From NCBI GenBank assembly GCA_934182465.1, contig CAKPRG010000003.1, forward strand, positions 109,542 to 173,541: DNA of 64,000 bases. The letters run 5' to 3'. Both the position numbers and the translations under genes were made by a program. Positions 2,936 to 60,378 of this stretch are shown here, piece by piece. This DNA comes from an uncultured Clostridia bacterium. Its GTDB lineage: Bacteria; Bacillota; Clostridia; TANB77; CAG-508. The notes below the pieces were generated by a model that saw only the letters and a program-made list of their open reading frames with translations, was not told where the DNA came from and did not search any database. Position 1 is the stretch's first letter. Every line of letters begins with the position of its first letter.

Positions 2936-4588
2936 CTATTTGCTATTTTCTTCTTTATTTACTCCAACTGCATAAATTACAAATGCAATTAAACTTATAA
3001 TAGAAATAATATTCGCAATTTGCTCTAAATTTGATTTTTGATATGTTACCTCTATTTTAGCATCATCATTTGCACCCAAAACAAACCCTAAAAATCCATT
3101 TTCTGTTTCTATACTCTCTAAAGTTATTCCATCTTCTTTTACTACATACCCAGGATAATATATATATGGCAATTCGAATTTTGTTTGCTCTTCAAATGTT
3201 TTTACTTTTGCAGAATACTCACTGCCATTTTTATTTTCATTTTCTATTAAAGCTTTTCCTTCCAATACGCACATTTCTTGTGTTCTTGTTGCTATATAAA
3301 ATTTATTATAATAGGCTTTAGTTGGCAAATATTCTGCTTTATTTATTCCTGCAGAAATTTCATCTACTTTTCCTGAAATATTTCCTAATTCCATATTTTC
3401 TATATCTGTTAAATTTTCTGTATTTTGAATATGTCCACTTAAACAAATTATATATGCCATTGATACTACTAATAATATTAAACTATCTTTTAATTTTAAG
3501 TTTCCAACAATTGCTCCCATATTTATAGCACATACTATTGTTAGGAAAAAGTTTGCCAAAGTTAGAATTCTCCATGGAAATTGCAATTTTACAAAAATTC
3601 TTGCAAAAATATTTATAGAAAAAATACTAGTTGCGCAAATAAATCCTAATATACAAAATATTAAATAAGTAATATAATCTTTTTTATATTCATTTTTTAG
3701 TTTTACAAAGGCCATTGGTGTTAAAGCAAACATCGCTATTAAAAGTGGCCCAACTTCAAATACATAATTTTCTTTTTGTGCTGTTACAAATAACTTTCTA
3801 ATTGATATTGTCTGTCTTGAAAACCCTTGTATTTCTTCATTTGTAACATTATTTATTTTATAATCTTCTCCAATTGTTGCTTCAAAATATGGCAACCATA
3901 TACAAGCTGTTAATATTAAAATAAAAGCAAAACTCAAAATCACTTTTGACAATATTTTATTATTTTTAATTTCTTTAATATTTACAAGCAAATAAATTAT
4001 TGATATTCCAAATACTATCCAGCTCAAACTTCTATCACACATAAACATTAGAGCTAAACTTATTGGAAATAAATAATGTTTTCTTTCATTGTTTTTTAAA
4101 CTATATAAGCCTAAAAAAGTAATTGGTAAAATTGCCAATGCTAAATGTTCTGAAAATGCATTTCTAACATATATTTCTGTTAAATGATATGGTAACATCA
4201 TATATATTCCAGCTGCAAGAATTCCAATATTACGATTTTCGGAAATTTCTTTTACTAAACAATACATTGTTATTCCAGATATAAACAGAGTTATTACTTC
4301 AAGTAATTTAAAACTTGTTATAGGATTTTTAAATACTAAATTAGTTATAGCTAATAAAATATCTGGAAATCTATTATTAAAAATACTATTTATGTATCCA
4401 AAATTATTTGCAAAACTTGGAATAATATTACTAAAAACACCAATTTTGCTTAGTTCGTAAGACTTTGATATATAATTTATTCCTTCACCTATATAACAAT
4501 TAAATGTATTTGAAACTATCGGTAATGACAATAATATTGTTATTACTATTAATATAACAATATATAATATTTTTTTCTCTTTTTTCAC
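2936..4588 (-). CDS. polytopic integral membrane protein, possibly glycosyltransferase-like (family unassigned)
   Basis: 550 aa, many predicted TM helices, large C-terminal extracytoplasmic domain. Confidence 0.4.
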   Translation of the reverse strand: MKKEKKILYIVILIVITILLSLPIVSNTFNCYIGEGINYISKSYELSKIGVFSNIIPSFANNFGYINSIFNNRFPDILLAITNLVFKNPITSFKLLEVITLFISGITMYCLVKEISENRNIGILAAGIYMMLPYHLTEIYVRNAFSEHLALAILPITFLGLYSLKNNERKHYLFPISLALMFMCDRSLSWIVFGISIIYLLVNIKEIKNNKILSKVILSFAFILILTACIWLPYFEATIGEDYKINNVTNEEIQGFSRQTISIRKLFVTAQKENYVFEVGPLLIAMFALTPMAFVKLKNEYKKDYITYLIFCILGFICATSIFSINIFARIFVKLQFPWRILTLANFFLTIVCAINMGAIVGNLKLKDSLILLVVSMAYIICLSGHIQNTENLTDIENMELGNISGKVDEISAGINKAEYLPTKAYYNKFYIATRTQEMCVLEGKALIENENKNGSEYSAKVKTFEEQTKFELPYIYYPGYVVKEDGITLESIETENGFLGFVLGANDDAKIEVTYQKSNLEQIANIISIISLIAFVIYAVGVNKEENSK

Positions 4589-53558: not shown

Positions 53559-56345
53559 TTAGAATCCATTTTTATCTATCCACTTTAATTTATTTATTAT
53601 AGACCAATCAGTTATATTGTTATTATTGTCTAAATAAACTTTTTGAAGTGAGCCTCCATTTGCTTTATTCAAGTTTTTTATAATATCCAAATTTCTATAG
53701 TTTGCTACATTACCGTTTTCATCTTTTTCTTGGTAATTATCATACAAAACATTATTCTCTAAATTCAATTCTTCTAAATTTTTCAAATTTGATAATTGTT
53801 TTATAGATGTTATTTTATTTTCTTGTAAATATAATTTTTTCAAGCTTGTTAATTTTTCAATACCATCTAAGCTTTTTATCGATTGTCCTCTTAAATACAA
53901 TTCTTGGAGATTTGGTAAATTTGCTGTGTATAAACCTGTTACATCTAAATTGTTTGAATTAATATTATTGCTCCAATAATTCAAACTTAATACTAGTAAA
54001 TTTGGTAAATTTATATTTTGAGGTATTGATAATACCCCATACTTACCAAATTCATCATCATAAAAATATTTTAAACTCTGATTACCTGAAAGTTGTCGAA
54101 ATAAATTATTATATCCATCTGGATTTAGTCCAGAAGCATTTATTGTAATTTTTTCTAAATTTGATAAACTAGATAAATCTGGATAAACTGTAAATCCATT
54201 TGAACTTTGATAATAAAAGTCAATTGTCTTTACTGATATTGGTAATTTTACAGTATATAAACCTGGCTTATTCATCCTTACAGATGTAAGTTTTGTACAA
54301 TTAGTTAAATCTAAAGTGTAATTTTGATTATTAGCATTATATGCATCTTGATATGCATAGCTTAAACTAGTAATCTCTGTACAATTTTCTAATTGCTTTA
54401 ACAATTTTTCTTTTCCTCCTAAAGAAATTCCACAATTTGACCAAATATTATATAAAGTTGTACTACCACTACATCTACTTATTGTTGGTTGTATTTTCGT
54501 AATATCAATATTTTCATTGTTTATTACTAATTGTCTCATTGTTGTAATATTATTTAATAAAGTTAAATCTGTAATATTTGTATTTCTTAAATCAATTTCA
54601 ATCAGCTTTTTAAAATCTTTTGCAAAATCAATTATTGATAAACCTGAAACATTATATAAACTCAAATATTTTAATTCTGTTAGTTCTTTTAAAGTGTCAT
54701 TTACAATTGTATTAACTGTAGAATCGCTTAATTTATTATTACTTGAATCCACTAAATTCAAATTATTTAATTTTAAATTATTTATTTTTTTATAATTTTT
54801 AATTAACTTAAAATTTTCTTCAGATAATGTTTGATTACTTAAATCTAAAACAGATGTACTTTCATTTAATAAAAGTAAAGTATATTTACTTGGAATAGAG
54901 CAATTTGAACCACAATTATTTATTATATTTACAATAGAATATAAACTATCTGCATTCATATTTTCACACCCAGTCAAATATAGGCTTCTTATTCCAGTAT
55001 ATTGACTTAAATAAGAAACATATTTTAAATTACTATTATTTTTCAAATTAATATAGTACAAATTATTATTGTTTTTTAAATATGCTAATGCATTTTCTTC
55101 ATTTTTTTCTGTTTCATTATCTCCAAGTTTATTTCCATTTACAAACAAATATCTTAGATTTGTCATATCTTGCAAACCATTCAGAGTAGTAATTTCATTA
55201 CATTCCCCTCTTAATAAATATAAATTTTTAAAATCTTTTAATGCTTCAAAACTTGCTATTTTATTATTATTTATTAATAAATATTGTATTGATTCTTTTG
55301 TATTTTTAGATAAATTCTTCAAGCATGAAATATCATCTAAATTTGATTTCACACCACTTGATTGTTCACTTGTAAAAATATTTTGCCAAATTGGATTATA
55401 TCCAAAAATACCAAAATAATATAAATTTGATAAGTCAGTTTCTCCAATTCCTTTAGTGCTATCACATAATGTTGCTAATTGTTCATTTGCGTTAATATTG
55501 TTGCTACTTAATAGTAAATATAAAGTTTTCAACTTACCGACTTTTTTCAAAGCTGAATAATCATTAATTTTACAATTTTGAAAATATATGTAATCTAAAT
55601 TTATAGCATCTTGTAATCCTTCTAAATCTTCTTTTTGTATATTTACAAAATTAATTTCTTTTAATGATCCTAAATTCGATATCTTAGTTAGATCAATATT
55701 TGAATCAGATATTGTTATAGATGTTACAGTTCGAATATCATTTAAAGTTATATCATCTTCTTTTCCTAAAACTTTTAACCAATCTGCATCTTTATCTTTT
55801 GAAAAAACAACTTTGCTTAATTCTGTTGTTTTAGCAGTATCTGTTGCTCCTATTCTATTTTCATTATTTTTTGAACAATAATATATTTTTAAATCACTAG
55901 TTACACCATAAATATCTTCAAATTCTGCATATATTCCTTTTCCTGTTAAACTATTCTCTCCACCTTTCAATTGTTTAGCAATTTCTTCTGGAAGTGCTGA
56001 TTTCTCAATAAAATAATATTCTTTGTATGAACTTGTATCTAAGAAAAAATATGAACTGTTTTTTGCTCTTTGAAAATATTTTTTCGTATTTGATTCATTT
56101 ATTAATCCATCTAATTTATTATCATATTTTTCTACTTCATCATAATATTTCACATATTCTGTTTGTAAAAATTCTTCTAATACAGCAACACTTTGCATAT
56201 ATGTTGCATTTTGTGCTTGTGTTATTATTCCATTATCTCCTATTGTTGCATTTAAACTTACACCTGCTAAAATCAGCATTACTATAATGGAAATTACTAG
56301 TGCTATTAATGTTATACCATTTTGAAATAATTTTCTTTCGTTCAT
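53559..56345 (-). CDS. large leucine-rich-repeat (LRR, internalin-like) protein with N-terminal pilin-like hydrophobic anchor
   Basis: 928 aa; multiple LxxLxLxxN 22-aa repeats; N-terminal NGITLIALVISIIVMLILAG. Confidence 0.6.
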   Translation of the reverse strand: MNERKLFQNGITLIALVISIIVMLILAGVSLNATIGDNGIITQAQNATYMQSVAVLEEFLQTEYVKYYDEVEKYDNKLDGLINESNTKKYFQRAKNSSYFFLDTSSYKEYYFIEKSALPEEIAKQLKGGENSLTGKGIYAEFEDIYGVTSDLKIYYCSKNNENRIGATDTAKTTELSKVVFSKDKDADWLKVLGKEDDITLNDIRTVTSITISDSNIDLTKISNLGSLKEINFVNIQKEDLEGLQDAINLDYIYFQNCKINDYSALKKVGKLKTLYLLLSSNNINANEQLATLCDSTKGIGETDLSNLYYFGIFGYNPIWQNIFTSEQSSGVKSNLDDISCLKNLSKNTKESIQYLLINNNKIASFEALKDFKNLYLLRGECNEITTLNGLQDMTNLRYLFVNGNKLGDNETEKNEENALAYLKNNNNLYYINLKNNSNLKYVSYLSQYTGIRSLYLTGCENMNADSLYSIVNIINNCGSNCSIPSKYTLLLLNESTSVLDLSNQTLSEENFKLIKNYKKINNLKLNNLNLVDSSNNKLSDSTVNTIVNDTLKELTELKYLSLYNVSGLSIIDFAKDFKKLIEIDLRNTNITDLTLLNNITTMRQLVINNENIDITKIQPTISRCSGSTTLYNIWSNCGISLGGKEKLLKQLENCTEITSLSYAYQDAYNANNQNYTLDLTNCTKLTSVRMNKPGLYTVKLPISVKTIDFYYQSSNGFTVYPDLSSLSNLEKITINASGLNPDGYNNLFRQLSGNQSLKYFYDDEFGKYGVLSIPQNINLPNLLVLSLNYWSNNINSNNLDVTGLYTANLPNLQELYLRGQSIKSLDGIEKLTSLKKLYLQENKITSIKQLSNLKNLEELNLENNVLYDNYQEKDENGNVANYRNLDIIKNLNKANGGSLQKVYLDNNNNITDWSIINKLKWIDKNGF

Positions 56346-56829
56346 CCGTGTTTTTCCTCCTATGTTTTTTATAATTATTTAGGAGAAATATCTTCACACT
56401 TAATATTTCTCCTTTTAAATCCATAAAAAACAAATAGTCTAATGACTTTTGCTTTCCTATTTGAAAGAAAACCATTTCAAAACTTTCCTTTATTCTATTT
56501 TTATGGATTTTCTTTAAGTTCAATGCTTAAAGAAAATAAAAAAAGACATGAATCAGTATATTTTTATATACTTTCATATCTTTTTTTATTAATTATTTTT
56601 TACATAAAAAAACTTTTATAATCTAAAGTGTTGACTTGAAATTTAGTAAATGGTAGAATTTTATTAAATGAAAACAATCTTTAAGCATTGAAATTAAAGA
56701 TTGTTTTATTTTTATATTGATTTCTGTATACCATTTAGTAACGCTTTTATATAATATAAAGTTTAAATAGCTTTCAAAATTGTAAAAAAAGATGTAAAAT
56801 ACATTTCTATATTTTACATCTTTCTCATT

Positions 56830-57162
56830 TTATTTAGATTCCCAACGAAACATTTTTATATCTTTATATTTATCTAATATTTTCATATATTTTTGATATT
56901 CTTCTTCCCATAATGCATCTGGAACTTTATCAAATGCCGAAAATATTTTATCTGCCTCTTGCAAAAATATAATTTGTTGTTGAGGTGATAGTTTATCGTA
57001 TTTTATACTAAAAGCATATAATTTATCTAATGTTTCATTTGCTTTTATAAATGACCAAAAATCGGTTACATTCATACCTGCCATTTTTATTTGAGCTACA
57101 GCTAACACTGTTAAAAATAGTATTACTGTTAATAGTATAAAAATTACTGCTAAAAATTCCAT
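56830..57162 (-). CDS. hypothetical membrane-anchored protein
   Basis: N-terminal TM; ORF with downstream hairpin 56672-56712. Confidence 0.35.
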   Translation of the reverse strand: MEFLAVIFILLTVILFLTVLAVAQIKMAGMNVTDFWSFIKANETLDKLYAFSIKYDKLSPQQQIIFLQEADKIFSAFDKVPDALWEEEYQKYMKILDKYKDIKMFRWESK

Positions 57163-57989: not shown

Positions 57990-58664
57990 ATGTGGACTTA
58001 TAATAAACATTTACAATACCCTATAAATATTCGTACACCAAATCCAAAGCTTGCTCAAATTATTATTTCTCAATATGGTGGTCCTGATGGCGAGCTTGGT
58101 GCTTCTTTAAGATATCTTTCTCAAAGATTTGGTATGCCAGATCAAAAATCTAAAGCTGTTTTAAACGATATTGGCACTGAAGAACTTGGGCATTTAGAAA
58201 TGGTAGGAACTTTAGTGCATCAATTAACTAAAGGTTGTAGTCCTCAACAAATGCAAGAATTAGGTTTAGGGGCATATTATACAGATCATGGATTTGGTGT
58301 ATATCCACAAGCAGCTGCTGGATTTCCTTGGAATGCTGCAAGTATTGCTGTAAAAGGTGATCCTGTTGCTGATTTAACAGAGGATTTAGCAGCAGAACAA
58401 AAAGCTAGAGCAACTTATGAAAAATTAATTGATCTTTGTAAAGATGATCCAGATGTACTTGATGTTCTTAGATTTTTAAGAGAAAGAGAAGTCGTTCATT
58501 TTCAAAGATTTGGTGAAGCTTTAAATAATGTTCAAGATAAACTTGCTGAAAAGCGTTGGTATACTGGCATGGGAAATAATGCAATAAATGGTATAAATAC
58601 TTTAAATAATTTTAACAATAATAATGATAATAATAATTCTTGTGGTTCTTGTAACAATTTTTAG
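57990..58664 (+). CDS. cotJC: spore coat protein CotJC (manganese catalase/ferritin-like family)
   Basis: MWTYNKHLQYPINIRTPNPKLAQ...YGGPDGELGASLRYLSQRF...GTEELGHLEM...LRFLREREVVHFQRF. Confidence 0.9.
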   Translation: MWTYNKHLQYPINIRTPNPKLAQIIISQYGGPDGELGASLRYLSQRFGMPDQKSKAVLNDIGTEELGHLEMVGTLVHQLTKGCSPQQMQELGLGAYYTDHGFGVYPQAAAGFPWNAASIAVKGDPVADLTEDLAAEQKARATYEKLIDLCKDDPDVLDVLRFLREREVVHFQRFGEALNNVQDKLAEKRWYTGMGNNAINGINTLNNFNNNNDNNNSCGSCNNF

Positions 58665-58778
58665 AATATTTGAAAAATAAGTGGACATATACGTTTGCAA
58701 ATGTATTTTATTAAATTATACTTTTGCAAATAATGTCCACTTTTATTTTATAAATTGAAAATTTTATTAATTTTTGTT

Positions 58779-59291
58779 TTATAAATTTATAAAATTGTAT
58801 TCAATACACTTTTCCTCTAATAATTTAAAATTGCAACATCTAGCTTTTATATTCTCTGGCAATTTTTCATTGTTGTATAATTGATACAATTTAAACGATT
58901 TATTTTTTACTTGCTTATAGTTTGCATTTAACCATTCTAGCTGTTCTCTTAATAATTTTTGATATTTTAATTCCGCAATAGTTAAAGTTTCTTTATTTAA
59001 ATCTACTAAAGAGTAATTTTTAGGAGTTACTGGTATCATATTATTAAAATTCACAGCTCCTAATTCGCCATCTTTGATTTTGAAAAAATCTACTGTATTT
59101 TTCATATTTCTGTGTTTAATTTTAGGACTTGATAATGGAGCAAAATATTCACAAGAATCTATTTTAAATAATATTCCTATAAACGGTCTCAATTCTTTTT
59201 CATTTTTATTATAAGATACCTTATTATCAAATTCTCTTAAATAATCACAATACTTTGAATCAACTCTAACAATTTTTAAATTTATAATCAT
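58779..59291 (-). CDS. toxN: type III toxin-antitoxin toxin, ToxN/AbiQ-family endoribonuclease
   Basis: KYCDYLREFDNKV...PFIGILFKI...YFAPLSSPK matches ToxN/AbiQ N-terminal signature; preceded by tandem repeats and terminator. Confidence 0.85.
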   Translation of the reverse strand: MIINLKIVRVDSKYCDYLREFDNKVSYNKNEKELRPFIGILFKIDSCEYFAPLSSPKIKHRNMKNTVDFFKIKDGELGAVNFNNMIPVTPKNYSLVDLNKETLTIAELKYQKLLREQLEWLNANYKQVKNKSFKLYQLYNNEKLPENIKARCCNFKLLEEKCIEYNFINL

Positions 59292-59352
59292 TATAAATTA
59301 CCTCCTTAGCATTTTTATTATATATTATAGTAAAAAATATAGCAATATAAAA

Positions 59353-59376
59353 GGATTAGAGTTTTACCTCTAATCC
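59353..59376 (-). terminator. terminator hairpin between antitoxin repeats and toxN (GGATTAGAG-loop-CTCTAATCC), T-runs on both sides
   Basis: 9-bp perfect stem; TTTTAT after it on minus strand, C3T6 after it on plus strand. Confidence 0.7.
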
Positions 59377-59388
59377 CCCTTTTTTAAG

Positions 59389-59493
59389 TTCCAATTTATG
59401 GCTGGAAACACCGCTTTTTCAAATTCCAATTTATGGCTGGATTCACCGCTTTTTTAAGTTCCAATTTATGGCTGGATTCACCAACTTTTTTTA
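59389..59493 (-). ncRNA. toxI: ToxI/antiQ-like antitoxin RNA: three tandem 35-nt repeats
   Basis: TTCCAATTTATGGCTGG(A/T)(A/T)(A/T)CACCGCTTTTTT(C/A)A(A/G) begins at 59389, 59424, 59459 (period 35); immediately upstream of terminator and toxN. Confidence 0.7.
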
Positions 59494-59679
59494 TTAAAGC
59501 AATAATATTATATGCAAGATTTACAAATTTATTGCTTACTGTAATTAATAATATAACATATTTTTTATTAATAATCAATATTTTTTGCATATTTTATTAA
59601 AAGTTCCTGCAATAAAACTTGTACAATGTTTTGCTTTAATGCATCAATTGCTCTTAATATTCCAATTTATTTCTTTCCA

Positions 59680-60378
59680 TTATTGTTCTTCTTTTAATAC
59701 ATCTATATCAACAGCATATTTTGACAAATCTTGACTATTAATATACACAGGAAATTGTTTTATATTTTTTTCTTCTATAATTCTTTCTGGATTTTTCCAA
59801 ATATTTTTACTTTTAAATTTATATTTTTCACCATTTAAAGGACTATTCCATTCACAAATAATATTATAAGGATTTCTTCCATTTACCATATATGTAGTAT
59901 TCAAATCAGTTCTAACATAGTCTGCATATATCAAATCTCCATTTTCTTTTAAAAATTTTTCATCTTGTACTTTTTTTATATTTACAAATATTCCTACAAC
60001 TCCACCTAAGAAAAAAATCATTCCAAATCCAGGAAATAACAAAAATAATTTATCTAATGATTTCATTCCTATCTTATTTGGATTATCTTTATCATAATAT
60101 ATTTTTATTTCTTTCCCTTCATAAAAATCAAAAGAATATCCATTTAACTTTGATCTATATTTTTTTCCTGCAACTGTATATGAAACATATACATCATGTT
60201 CTACATCATCATTATTATTATCTGTATGTGTTACTATTTCTTCAATAGTGCCAGTTGTTTCTATTTTATTTTCATAATTAAATATATTTCCACACAAAGC
60301 AATTCCAATTAAACAAAATATTGCTCCAACAATAACAAATATAACCCATAATAAAATATCTAATTTATTTTCTTTCAT
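59680..60378 (-). CDS. DUF3592-like two-TM membrane protein
   Basis: Two TM helices flanking a beta-rich domain. Confidence 0.4.
   Translation of the reverse strand: MKENKLDILLWVIFVIVGAIFCLIGIALCGNIFNYENKIETTGTIEEIVTHTDNNNDDVEHDVYVSYTVAGKKYRSKLNGYSFDFYEGKEIKIYYDKDNPNKIGMKSLDKLFLLFPGFGMIFFLGGVVGIFVNIKKVQDEKFLKENGDLIYADYVRTDLNTTYMVNGRNPYNIICEWNSPLNGEKYKFKSKNIWKNPERIIEEKNIKQFPVYINSQDLSKYAVDIDVLKEEQ

Follow-up and report, generated by a model that had tools for sequence, protein, structure and literature searches.

A probably complete toxIN-family type III toxin-antitoxin locus as an optional chromosomal insert in an uncultured gut Clostridium-like bacterium

Does the minus-strand stretch from 59606 to 58670 of the window (i.e. 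the whole 64-kb piece of DNA that was analysed) hold a complete type III toxin-antitoxin locus, and if so, how is it expressed and what role could it play in an uncultured Clostridium-like bacterium of the human gut, whose chromosome carries it as an optional insert of about 0.8 kb? The first-pass annotation had proposed a ToxI-terminator-ToxN architecture, and all three elements were indeed recovered on the minus strand in the order stated, so that the layout reads conserved promoter elements, toxI repeat array, terminator hairpin and ToxN gene. Judged by its sequence, the stretch is in our view very probably a complete and apparently working locus of the toxIN family. In type III modules, which are known from bacterial suicide or phage defence, an antitoxin RNA made of small repeats restrains a protein toxin that cuts RNA.

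The gene at 58779..59291 (minus strand), which has a Shine-Dalgarno sequence AAGGAGG (59301..59307, minus strand) 9 nt before its ATG that is kept in the relatives, encodes a protein of 170 aa. Its assignment to the ToxN/AbiQ-family endoribonuclease toxins, initially made from the letters of the sequence, agrees with the profile searches: Pfam PF13958 (ToxN_toxin) matches over profile positions 1-159 of 159 with an E-value of 2.1e-48 (165 bits, versus a cut-off of 25), the PADLOC AbiQ model matches at 5e-38, and the toxin matches ToxN/AbiQ models only. The best match among the solved structures is ToxN_Bt, i.e. the toxin of ToxIN from Bacillus thuringiensis pAW63 (4ATO, E-value 8e-27, 37% identity), and further matches are ToxN_Pa of the archetypal ToxIN from Pectobacterium atrosepticum pECA1039 (2XD0 at 5e-21, 36% identity; complexes 2XDB/2XDD), E. 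coli ToxN (7D8O, 3e-19) and AbiQ (4GLK, 2e-9). The protein is thus nearer to the B. thuringiensis toxin than to AbiQ, to which it is a distant relative (29% identity). The active-site residues of ToxN_Pa are Y29, K33, T52, S53 and K55 (PMC5086642); T52, S53, K55 and K33 align with S54, S55, K57 and R35 of the window protein, S55 is invariant in an alignment of 10 sequences and the active-site motif APL(S/T)SPK is conserved, while Y29 is found opposite E33 or a gap and so has no clear counterpart, ToxN_Bt being likewise unaligned at this position.

The toxN gene is under purifying selection (dN/dS of 0.08-0.19 versus nine relatives), and the identical protein is recorded in 77 sample blocks. 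These observations bear directly on the suspicion that the locus is a decaying relic, with an inactive or unexpressed toxin and inert repeats. Such decay does occur within the family, as six relict loci have lost part of toxN by internal deletion and retained the array (L033, L068, L069, L073, L076 and the second copy in L022), and the scar allele found in the species itself testifies to loss as well. Nevertheless, we hold a relic to be very improbable, given that the open reading frame in the window is full length, covers the whole Pfam profile, keeps the active-site motif and shows the above constraint, and that the repeats differ by at most 3% from those of the related locus L001 despite a synonymous dS of 0.63 for toxN.

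The repeats were delineated by Tandem Repeats Finder at 59379-59491 (period 35, 3.2 copies, 89% matches, score 168). In register, the toxI array runs from 59492 to 59380 on the minus strand and consists of three full units of 37, 35 and 35 nt, i.e. AAAAAAAGUUGGUGAAUCCAGCCAUAAAUUGGAACUU (59456..59492), AAAAAAGCGGUGAAUCCAGCCAUAAAUUGGAAUUU (59421..59455) and GAAAAAGCGGUGUUUCCAGCCAUAAAUUGGAACUU (59386..59420), followed by a fourth A-run (59380..59385) that, as read from the sequence, would be the 3' cleavage site freeing unit 3; the earlier delimitation at 59389-59493 was correct within a few bases (units in register: 59492-59386). The three units score 43.4, 49.3 and 44.8 bits, respectively, against a covariance model trained on the units of the relatives with the window's own units included. 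Over the whole window, there are three copies of a 26-nt unit core and no further ones (0.00 are expected from shuffles), and extra or orphan units were not found outside the array. Runs of five to seven adenines (A5-A7) bound every unit, with the fourth run preceding the hairpin. Since these runs fit the published cleavage sites, A/AAAA for ToxN_Bt and A/AAA for AbiQ (PMC5086642), the array would by analogy be cut there.

Across the relatives, each unit is able to fold into two short helices that interleave, one pairing GGU with GCC and the other UCCA with UGGA, as in a ToxI-like pseudoknot. Among 73 distinct units, 80% of the cells are paired, compared to at most 46% when the partners are slid, and the covariation score is 0.26 versus 0.127 in shuffles, none of 500 of which reaches 0.26. 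Exchanges are compensatory at the pair 10-22 (GC 59, AU 12) and at the pair 16-35 (UA 38, GC 13, CG 9, with UG 12), all of these counts being approximate because the MAFFT alignment of the units is out of register in some rows. The unit 3 variant with UU, which is also the third unit in most close relatives, lengthens helix B to 5 bp. A lone unit has no stable nested fold (-2.9 kcal/mol, z 0.25), as expected of a pseudoknot that is stabilised by protein, but this lends the pseudoknot no support. Each toxI repeat RNA is predicted from the covariation to fold as a pseudoknot.

The same data speak to the question whether the repeats could be something other than an antitoxin, namely the coding sequence of a small protein or a cis-regulatory leader for toxN. 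A 64-aa open reading frame (59396-59590) does cover the array, and in pECA1039, too, the annotation places a similar frame across the ToxI repeats. The unit lengths of 37, 35 and 35 nt are, however, not multiples of three, and as the units of the relatives vary between 34 and 37 nt any reading frame would shift; moreover, unit variation tracks base-pairing and not codons, a hairpin terminator separates the repeats from toxN, and the units are homologous to the toxIN repeats of Lactococcus lactis pCV56A (Blower et al. 2012) and similar to antiQ. We regard this explanation as even more improbable than decay, and continue to read the repeats as the antitoxin.

How far the homology of the RNA extends depends on the comparison. 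A comparison of the repeats with Rfam, which had been suggested as a check, returned no family at E <= 10, and in a permissive scan of 58500-60000 no match fell on the repeats and the matches obtained were at chance level (caiA, E 3.8; a hairpin-ribozyme fragment, E 0.21). A covariance model built from gut-genome units only, and restricted to helix A as pseudoknots cannot be modelled, recovers L. lactis pCV56A toxI units (E 1e-4 to 1e-2) as well as those of F. polymorphum (E 2e-3 to 3e-2), and is not significant on antiQ (E 2.7, 9.5 bits), ToxI_Bt (E 0.18) and ToxI_Pa. As a consequence, the link at the RNA level to these three experimentally studied antitoxins rests on topology and pairwise similarity. 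The likeness to antiQ that the first-pass annotation had noted holds in this sense: antiQ of L. lactis pSRQ900 (for which NC_004959 was used, located by tblastn) has 2.9 copies of 35 nt, like the array in the window in period and copy number, and agrees with the window unit at 26 of 35 positions, where the best of 500 shuffles reaches 25. The antiQ core AUCCAAGCCAUAGUUGGAAU is nearly identical to the window's AUCCAGCCAUAAAUUGGAAU, whereas the 5' halves differ (AAAAUUGGAGU against AAAAAAGCGGUG). The AbiQ/antiQ pair is located on a small mobilisable plasmid and has no internal promoter. ToxI_Bt shares 22 of 35 positions and the same order of the two interleaved helices, and its A/AAAA site is matched by the A-runs in the window.

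Between the array and toxN lies an intrinsic-terminator hairpin that is followed by the tail UUUUAUAUU (together 59344..59376, minus strand), with a G+C-containing 9-bp stem (59376-59368 / 59361-59353) and the 6-nt loop GUAAAA. Both the coordinates 59353-59376 and the stem given in the first-pass annotation were reproduced exactly. Counting G-U there are 13 pairs, and the predicted free energy is -16.9 kcal/mol (z = -5.0). The hairpin is conserved among the relatives, the more distant of which show compensating changes. It is followed by a short U-tract on the toxN strand (UUUU, then AUAUU) and by T6 on the opposite one.

Upstream of the array, a consensus scan identified a promoter-like element P1 (59550..59578, minus strand) composed of TTGATT (59578-59573), a spacer of 17 nt and an extended -10, TG-n-TATATT (59558-59550). 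The -35 TTGA(T/C) and the extended -10 hold their places even in relatives whose ToxN is 66-73% identical, with TTGACA (L031, L035) or TTGATA (L032) as -35 in some. A second -10-like hexamer, TATAAT (59507..59512, minus strand) within TTGCATATAAT, is located 14 nt 5' of the first A-run and has a poor -35; the sequence GCATATAAT is nearly invariant among 15 aligned relatives, and the geometry equals that of the TTGACA-17-TATAAT promoter just 5' of toxI in L. lactis pCV56A.

A further sigma-70-type element is found at 59345-59317, i.e. between terminator and toxN, where a locus transcribed as a bicistronic unit from a single promoter would have only elements upstream of the array, which are here present and conserved. 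It consists of TTGCTA (59345-59340), a 17-nt spacer and TATAAT (59322-59317), matches the consensus with a score of 10/12 and ends 25 nt before the toxN ATG. About 30 relatives have its TTG and TATAAT at this position but with diverged spacers, and several relatives have a better version: a perfect TTGACA-17/18-TATAAT (L031, L032), a score of 11/12 (L035) or TTGTCA-17-TATAAT (L060). In a stretch of 56 nt, scores of at least 10, 11 or 12 are expected from the background with probabilities of 0.029, 0.0047 and 0.0004, respectively. These conserved elements raise the possibility, which we put at slightly below even, that toxN in this gut clade of toxIN loci, the window's included, has its own sigma-A-type promoter 3' of the terminator and that toxin and antitoxin form separate or partly coupled units. 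An own toxN promoter would imply that toxin and antitoxin may come partly from separate transcripts. If this is true, two promoters, rather than leakage through the terminator, would set the antitoxin-to-toxin ratio and the trigger for release. In an incomplete search of the literature we found no description of an internal toxN promoter, only of the single operon promoter; the known picture of type III systems stays as it is unless the internal promoter proves functional, and the locus invites the question whether a promoter of its own can serve a type III toxin.

The sequence criteria that are used in the literature to define a toxIN-family type III locus appear, as far as they can be computed, to apply throughout: a ToxN-family toxin, same-strand tandem repeats just upstream of it, a hairpin terminator in between and a promoter upstream. 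The published ranges for the family are a repeat of 31-62 nt in 1.9-5.6 copies and a toxin of around 168 aa, and 57 out of 67 published loci are chromosomal (PMC3401426); all values of the window locus lie within these ranges. The B. thuringiensis pAW63 locus has the same layout, i.e. promoter, about three repeats (34 nt, 2.9-3.1 copies), hairpin and toxN. Unlike the window locus it is plasmid-borne, with a gap of around 30 nt between terminator and toxN that holds no promoter-like element, and its toxin has a longer C-terminal tail. The pECA1039 system follows the same operon logic with the same toxin family, but has 5.6 repeats of 36 nt, an AA/AU cleavage site and unit sequences that in our tests can not be aligned to those of the window. 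CptIN and TenpIN, the other two type III families, follow the same general plan as the window locus, with repeats, a terminator and an endoribonuclease toxin, and represent different toxin families with longer repeats (40-57 nt) at around two copies (PMC3401426).

The closest annotated systems are the toxIN loci of L. lactis pCV56A, Fusobacterium and Clostridium botulinum p1 / phage D-1873, which have been listed on bioinformatic grounds (Blower et al. 2012, PMC3401426) and for which we found no experimental tests. The toxins of C. botulinum (46-48% identity), F. polymorphum (45%) and pCV56A (40-43%) are the nearest annotated ones, and the nearest antitoxin units are those of pCV56A (29/35 positions, the first 16 nt being identical) and F. 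polymorphum (28/35). In contrast to the window locus, these loci reside on plasmids or a plasmid prophage, have a short distance from terminator to start codon and lack an internal promoter.

A homolog search yielded 2,581 sequences at E <= 1e-3, the best 120 of which are 76-89% identical to the window ToxN. Of 71 related loci in genomes from gut metagenomes, about 65 have a repeat of 34-37 nt in around 3.2 copies at the same place, and toxN without an array was not seen among those related loci that have enough upstream sequence. The toxIN family thereby gains a well-documented lineage of uncultured Clostridia and Bacilli from human and animal guts, and the approximately 65 natural antitoxin variants provide ready covariation data for the ToxI pseudoknot and for the specificity between toxin and RNA. 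Copies of the cassette that are 80-91% identical occur in more than 20 contexts, flanked by unrelated housekeeping genes, and five loci have a tyrosine integrase gene directly next to the cassette. Synteny of the cassette across genomes was considered and dismissed, the flanks being unrelated except in a group with a common integrase gene. This raises the question how a cassette of 0.8 kb, extending from promoter to stop codon, spreads without visible mobility genes. The viral contig collection held no relative of the window ToxN, and the phage collection gave distant matches only (33-48% identity; C. botulinum phages, a C. difficile plasmid-phage and Fusobacterium phage phiFN37).

Within the species the cassette is accessory: most sampled strains lack it, and carry instead a 54-nt scar made up of the repeat tail and the hairpin. 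That the toxIN-less allele might be an untouched empty site, from which the ends of the insertion could be read, was considered and rejected, as it still holds 54 nt of the cassette's middle part and is thus a deletion scar. Its absence from most sampled strains implies that any benefit of the cassette is conditional; the polymorphism is compatible with an accessory defence gene and is no proof of one. It also raises the question how the cassette can be lost safely, for which two alleles occur naturally in the species, one with the full cassette and one with the scar that keeps only the terminator; if cultured, strains with either allele would be near-isogenic material for tests of phage defence and fitness.

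By analogy with ToxIN_Pa, ToxIN_Bt and AbiQ, ToxN would cut the precursor RNA within the A-runs between the units, each freed pseudoknot would bridge two ToxN molecules and block their active sites, and three units and three toxins would probably close as a triangular complex. If the antitoxin RNA turns over faster than the ToxN protein, a stop of host transcription, for instance upon phage infection, would leave free ToxN to cleave A-rich RNAs, which are very abundant in this genome of 25% G+C, and the cell would be arrested or killed and the infection thereby aborted. Toxicity and phage defence are in this way proposed for the window locus from its characterized relatives. The same module may, however, serve mainly selfish maintenance or addiction (post-segregational killing, which would stabilise the DNA that carries the module) or a stress-induced growth arrest and not phage defence, which we consider unlikely but well short of negligible. 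The cassette does behave as a solitary mobile gene, given the above contexts and adjoining integrases, and is without relative in the viral contig collection; furthermore, the host is a spore former with cotJABC adjoining the cassette, and for ToxIN_Bt a role in plasmid retention during sporulation has been published (PMC4615649). Against this, the cassette has housekeeping chromosomal surroundings in the window with nothing obvious to stabilise, its clean loss in most sampled strains argues against a strong addiction, and ToxIN_Pa and AbiQ abort phage infection (PMC5086642), maintenance and defence being roles that do not exclude each other.

The locus had been described as a second defence locus in this window, which was not substantiated by a PADLOC search of the 20 largest other open reading frames at 1-44 kb, as only weak partial matches and no convincing system were obtained. 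The neighbouring DUF3592 gene, suggested as possible cargo, adjoins cotJC in strains of the same species without toxIN and is missing from the cassette flanks in other genomes; it is a resident chromosomal gene. As a partner of toxIN it was rejected for the same reasons and for want of a PADLOC match. Finally, 3' of toxN an inverted repeat forms a long hairpin with a U-rich tail (58668..58755, minus strand; -23.4 kcal/mol, z -5.6), which is probably a bidirectional terminator common to toxN and the convergent cotJC; this stretch is missing from the toxIN-less allele.

The minus-strand cassette at ~59606-58670 is in all likelihood a functional ToxIN-type type III toxin-antitoxin module, for which the parts list, the toxin family, RNA conservation and covariation, and selection on toxN were established computationally. 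The order of repeats, terminator and ToxN gene, which the first-pass annotation had read as toxIN/abiQ-like, was confirmed, and that interpretation is supported. The toxI array indeed consists of tandem direct repeats, with units at 59492-59456 (37 nt, AAAAAAAGTTGGTGAATCCAGCCATAAATTGGAACTT), 59455-59421 (35 nt, AAAAAAGCGGTGAATCCAGCCATAAATTGGAATTT) and 59420-59386 (35 nt, GAAAAAGCGGTGTTTCCAGCCATAAATTGGAACTT) and a fourth A-run after unit 3 (59385-59380), all on the minus strand; Tandem Repeats Finder (TRF) reports a period of 35, 3.2 copies, 89% matches and a score of 168. The 26-nt core of the unit occurs three times in the whole 64 kb, each time in the array, and not once in 100 shuffles. Directly 3' of the array lies the terminator hairpin, at exactly the coordinates first assigned to it (59376-59353, minus strand; GGATTAGAG-GTAAAA-CTCTAATCC, tail TTTTATATT), with 13 pairs once G-U pairs are counted (-16.9 kcal/mol, z -5.0). 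As no unit has a length divisible by three, a 64-aa ORF that crosses the array (59396-59590, minus strand) is almost certainly spurious; a comparable ORF over the ToxI repeats is annotated as a hypothetical protein in the RefSeq record of pECA1039 (L128 254-475).

The toxN gene (59291-58779, minus strand, 170 aa) is preceded by a spacer of 52 nt that includes a strong Shine-Dalgarno sequence, AAGGAGG (59307-59301), and the unit ends on the same strand in a long hairpin with a U-rich tail (58755-58668; -23.4 kcal/mol, z -5.6) that faces the convergent cotJC gene. Profile searches place the product firmly in the proposed ToxN/AbiQ family (Pfam ToxN_toxin, PF13958, E 2.1e-48 over the entire profile; PADLOC AbiQ model, 5e-38). 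Its best match among solved structures is ToxN of B. thuringiensis (4ATO, 8e-27), followed by the ToxN proteins of P. atrosepticum (2XD0, 5e-21) and E. coli (7D8O, 3e-19) and by AbiQ (4GLK, 2e-9). An alignment with the plasmid-derived sequences of characterised ToxN/AbiQ proteins gives positional equivalents for four of the five active-site residues on record (PMC5086642): S54, S55 and K57 (motif APLSSPK) correspond to T52, S53 and K55 of P. atrosepticum ToxN (ToxN_Pa), and R35 to K33. For Tyr29 of ToxN_Pa the alignment offers no clear counterpart, neither here nor in the B. thuringiensis protein (ToxN_Bt). Judged by its sequence, toxN is intact and under selection; dN/dS is 0.08-0.19 against nine relatives, and the identical protein is recorded in 77 metagenome sample blocks.

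Scanning one genome per species gave 80 related loci, almost all of them in gut metagenome-assembled genomes that are labelled Clostridia (ToxN identity 80-91%) or Bacilli/'Tenericutes' (57-65%). In ~65 of the 71 loci with enough upstream sequence, TRF found a 34-37-nt repeat of ~3.0-3.3 copies at the same position, and the variation among the units preserves two short helices with interleaved strands. Helix A pairs GGU(G) with (C)ACC, GCC, GCUC or GCUU, and helix B occurs as UCCA/UGGA, CCCA/UGGG, GCCA/UGGC and UUCC/GGAA. Among 73 distinct units, 80% of the cells are standard-paired, as against 31-46% with slid partners, and the covariation score of 0.26 (0.127 +/- 0.010 in shuffles) was reached in none of 500 shuffles. 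Compensatory exchanges are seen at pairs 10-22 (GC 59, AU 12), 16-35 (UA 38, GC 13, CG 9, UG 12) and 12-20 (UG 46, CG 12, UA 9), counts that are conservative because a few rows of the MAFFT unit alignment have slipped out of register. Thermodynamic folding gave no stable nested fold for a single unit, as is to be expected since the solved ToxI RNAs are protein-stabilised, triplex-cored pseudoknots (PMC5086642).

Among the antitoxin arrays of known loci, toxI of the L. lactis plasmid pCV56A has 29 of 35 positions in common with the window unit (the first 16 nt being identical), followed by F. polymorphum (28/35), antiQ of pSRQ900 (26/35), C. botulinum p1 (25/35) and ToxI_Bt (22/35), so that the earlier noted likeness to antiQ holds. 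A covariance model trained on gut-genome units only detects all pCV56A and F. polymorphum units (E 1e-4 to 3e-2) and gave no significant hit to antiQ, ToxI_Bt or ToxI_Pa; the Rfam search of the repeats that had been proposed as a check returned no match. By both toxin and RNA the closest relatives are the group of pCV56A, Fusobacterium and C. botulinum loci, and the predicted toxin is nearer to ToxN_Bt than to AbiQ, even though the RNA resembles antiQ.

An alignment of 15 relatives reveals two conserved promoter-like elements upstream of the array. The first is a sigma-70-type promoter with an extended -10 (59578-59550, minus strand; TTGATT-17-TGtTATATT), of which the -35 reads TTGACA or TTGATA in diverged relatives. 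The second is a -10 (59512-59507, minus strand) within the nearly invariant TTGCATATAAT, 14 nt before the array, an arrangement shared with the pCV56A promoter. Between this -10 and the first A-run most relatives have a small covarying 5' hairpin (GCTAGAAATAGC, GCACATAAGTGC or ACTACTATTTATAGTAGT), most of which is missing from the window owing to a deletion of 6-7 nt. An inverted repeat, AAGCAATAA...TTATTGCTT (59497-59537), spans the second -10 (-8.9 kcal/mol, z only -1.6).

A further sigma-70-type promoter-like element, TTGCTA-17-TATAAT (59345-59317, minus strand), lies in the gap between terminator and toxN and ends 25 nt before the ATG. Its TTG and TATAAT are kept at the same position across the clade, in ~30 relatives; the diverged loci L031 and L032 carry a perfect TTGACA-17/18-TATAAT and L035 matches at 11/12, their spacers having diverged despite the kept hexamers. 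For a random 56-nt stretch with the AT-rich composition of these loci the chance of a score of at least 10 is 0.029, of at least 11 0.0047 and of 12 0.0004. No such element occurs in the Bt, pCV56A, pSRQ900, pECA1039, C. botulinum and F. polymorphum loci, whose terminator and start codon are only ~20-30 nt apart. In the type III papers and reviews consulted, one promoter serves the whole operon and read-through at the terminator sets the ratio (PMC5086642, PMC8860590, PMC12283969); the novelty of the window locus is possibly regulatory, i.e. a conserved internal promoter as predicted here.

By analogy with ToxIN_Pa, ToxIN_Bt and AbiQ, ToxN would cut the precursor within the A-runs (published cleavage sites: A/AAAA for Bt and A/AAA for AbiQ; PMC5086642; PMC3401426), and each 35-37-nt pseudoknot would bind two ToxN monomers head-to-tail, blocking their active sites. 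In our own reading, the nearly constant number of three units per array (~60 loci) would result in one closed 3:3 complex per precursor. The antitoxin RNA would be less stable than the protein, and an arrest of host transcription, e.g. on phage infection, would free ToxN to cut A-rich RNA and abort the infection. That phage defence is the main role of the module in this host has roughly even chances. The first-pass annotation had counted it as a second defence locus, and a scan of 20 large ORFs (1-44 kb) yielded no clear second system; the only notable match, covering part of the profile, was that of an 828-aa protein (8701-11187, minus strand) to the PADLOC CARF-adenosine-deaminase model (E 1.5e-15).

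The cassette lies in the ordinary chromosome (~25% G+C) of a spore former. The genes around it include those for an XerD-like recombinase, SpoIIM, RsmB/F, MutL, a PstS-like protein and an LRR protein, and cotJA-B-C; next come toxIN and then the genes for a DUF3592 membrane protein, a polysaccharide deacetylase, DUF3298 and a Clp ATPase. At the DNA level the cassette resembles the other loci (80-89% identity) only over ~59606-58794, i.e. from the promoter to ~15 nt before the toxN stop codon, and the flanks elsewhere are unrelated housekeeping genes (e.g. S41 peptidase, nucleoside phosphorylase, flavodoxin, MiaA, aminotransferase, GNAT, NUDIX). In five loci (L010, L013, L014, L015, L016) a tyrosine-integrase gene runs right up to the cassette's 5' edge (ORF ends ~3686-3689, e.g. 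L013 2691-3686; Phage_integrase E 4e-36), which points to an integrative element that carries the cassette at one edge; such an element could be the vehicle of its spread. In L020 a tyrosine recombinase gene lies downstream of toxIN.

Within the species the cassette is polymorphic: the exact CotJB protein occurs in 399 sample blocks versus the 77 for ToxN, toxN is absent from 8 of the 10 architectures listed, and most sampled strains are without toxIN. Between DUF3592 and cotJC the toxIN-less allele keeps 54 nt (window 59397-59344), namely the last 12 nt of unit 3, the A-run, the hairpin and TTTTATATT (L085 2025-2078, L102 192-245, L117-L126 around 3445-3513). Two blocks of the window are missing from that allele, 59668-59398 with the direct repeat AAATTGGAA at its flanks and 59343-58670 with ATATT at its flanks. 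The cassette to which these 54 nt are internal occurs complete in dozens of other contexts, so that the short allele is most readily explained as the scar of two deletions; among the sampled strains no intermediate with only one of them was seen. On the plus strand T6, the complement of the A-run, follows the retained hairpin, which therefore probably now terminates cotJC. An accessory 0.8-kb cassette that leaves its terminator behind on loss is an evolutionary curiosity.

In other loci (L033, L068, L069, L073 of Clostridium sp. CAG:793, L076, and the second of two copies in L022) promoter, toxI array and terminator are retained and toxN is destroyed by internal deletions; loss of toxN with toxI kept is the safe order for a toxin-antitoxin pair. 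In L022 an intact cassette lies 2.2 kb downstream of the relic (1514-1829). An insertion of ~215 nt separates array and toxN in L034. In one strain (L120 2771-5267) an inserted element truncates cotJC to 136 aa. It starts with two genes for large serine recombinases and recalls the intervening elements by which sporulation genes are interrupted in other spore formers. The region beyond cotJA is strain-variable as well (window 53559-57162 versus L110, L112 and L115 1-2185), encoding a 928-aa LRR protein and a 110-aa ORF in the window and Glug/DUF6273 proteins in other strains, some of which carry a bAvd gene and a MutS_I fragment there, a hint of a diversity-generating retroelement.
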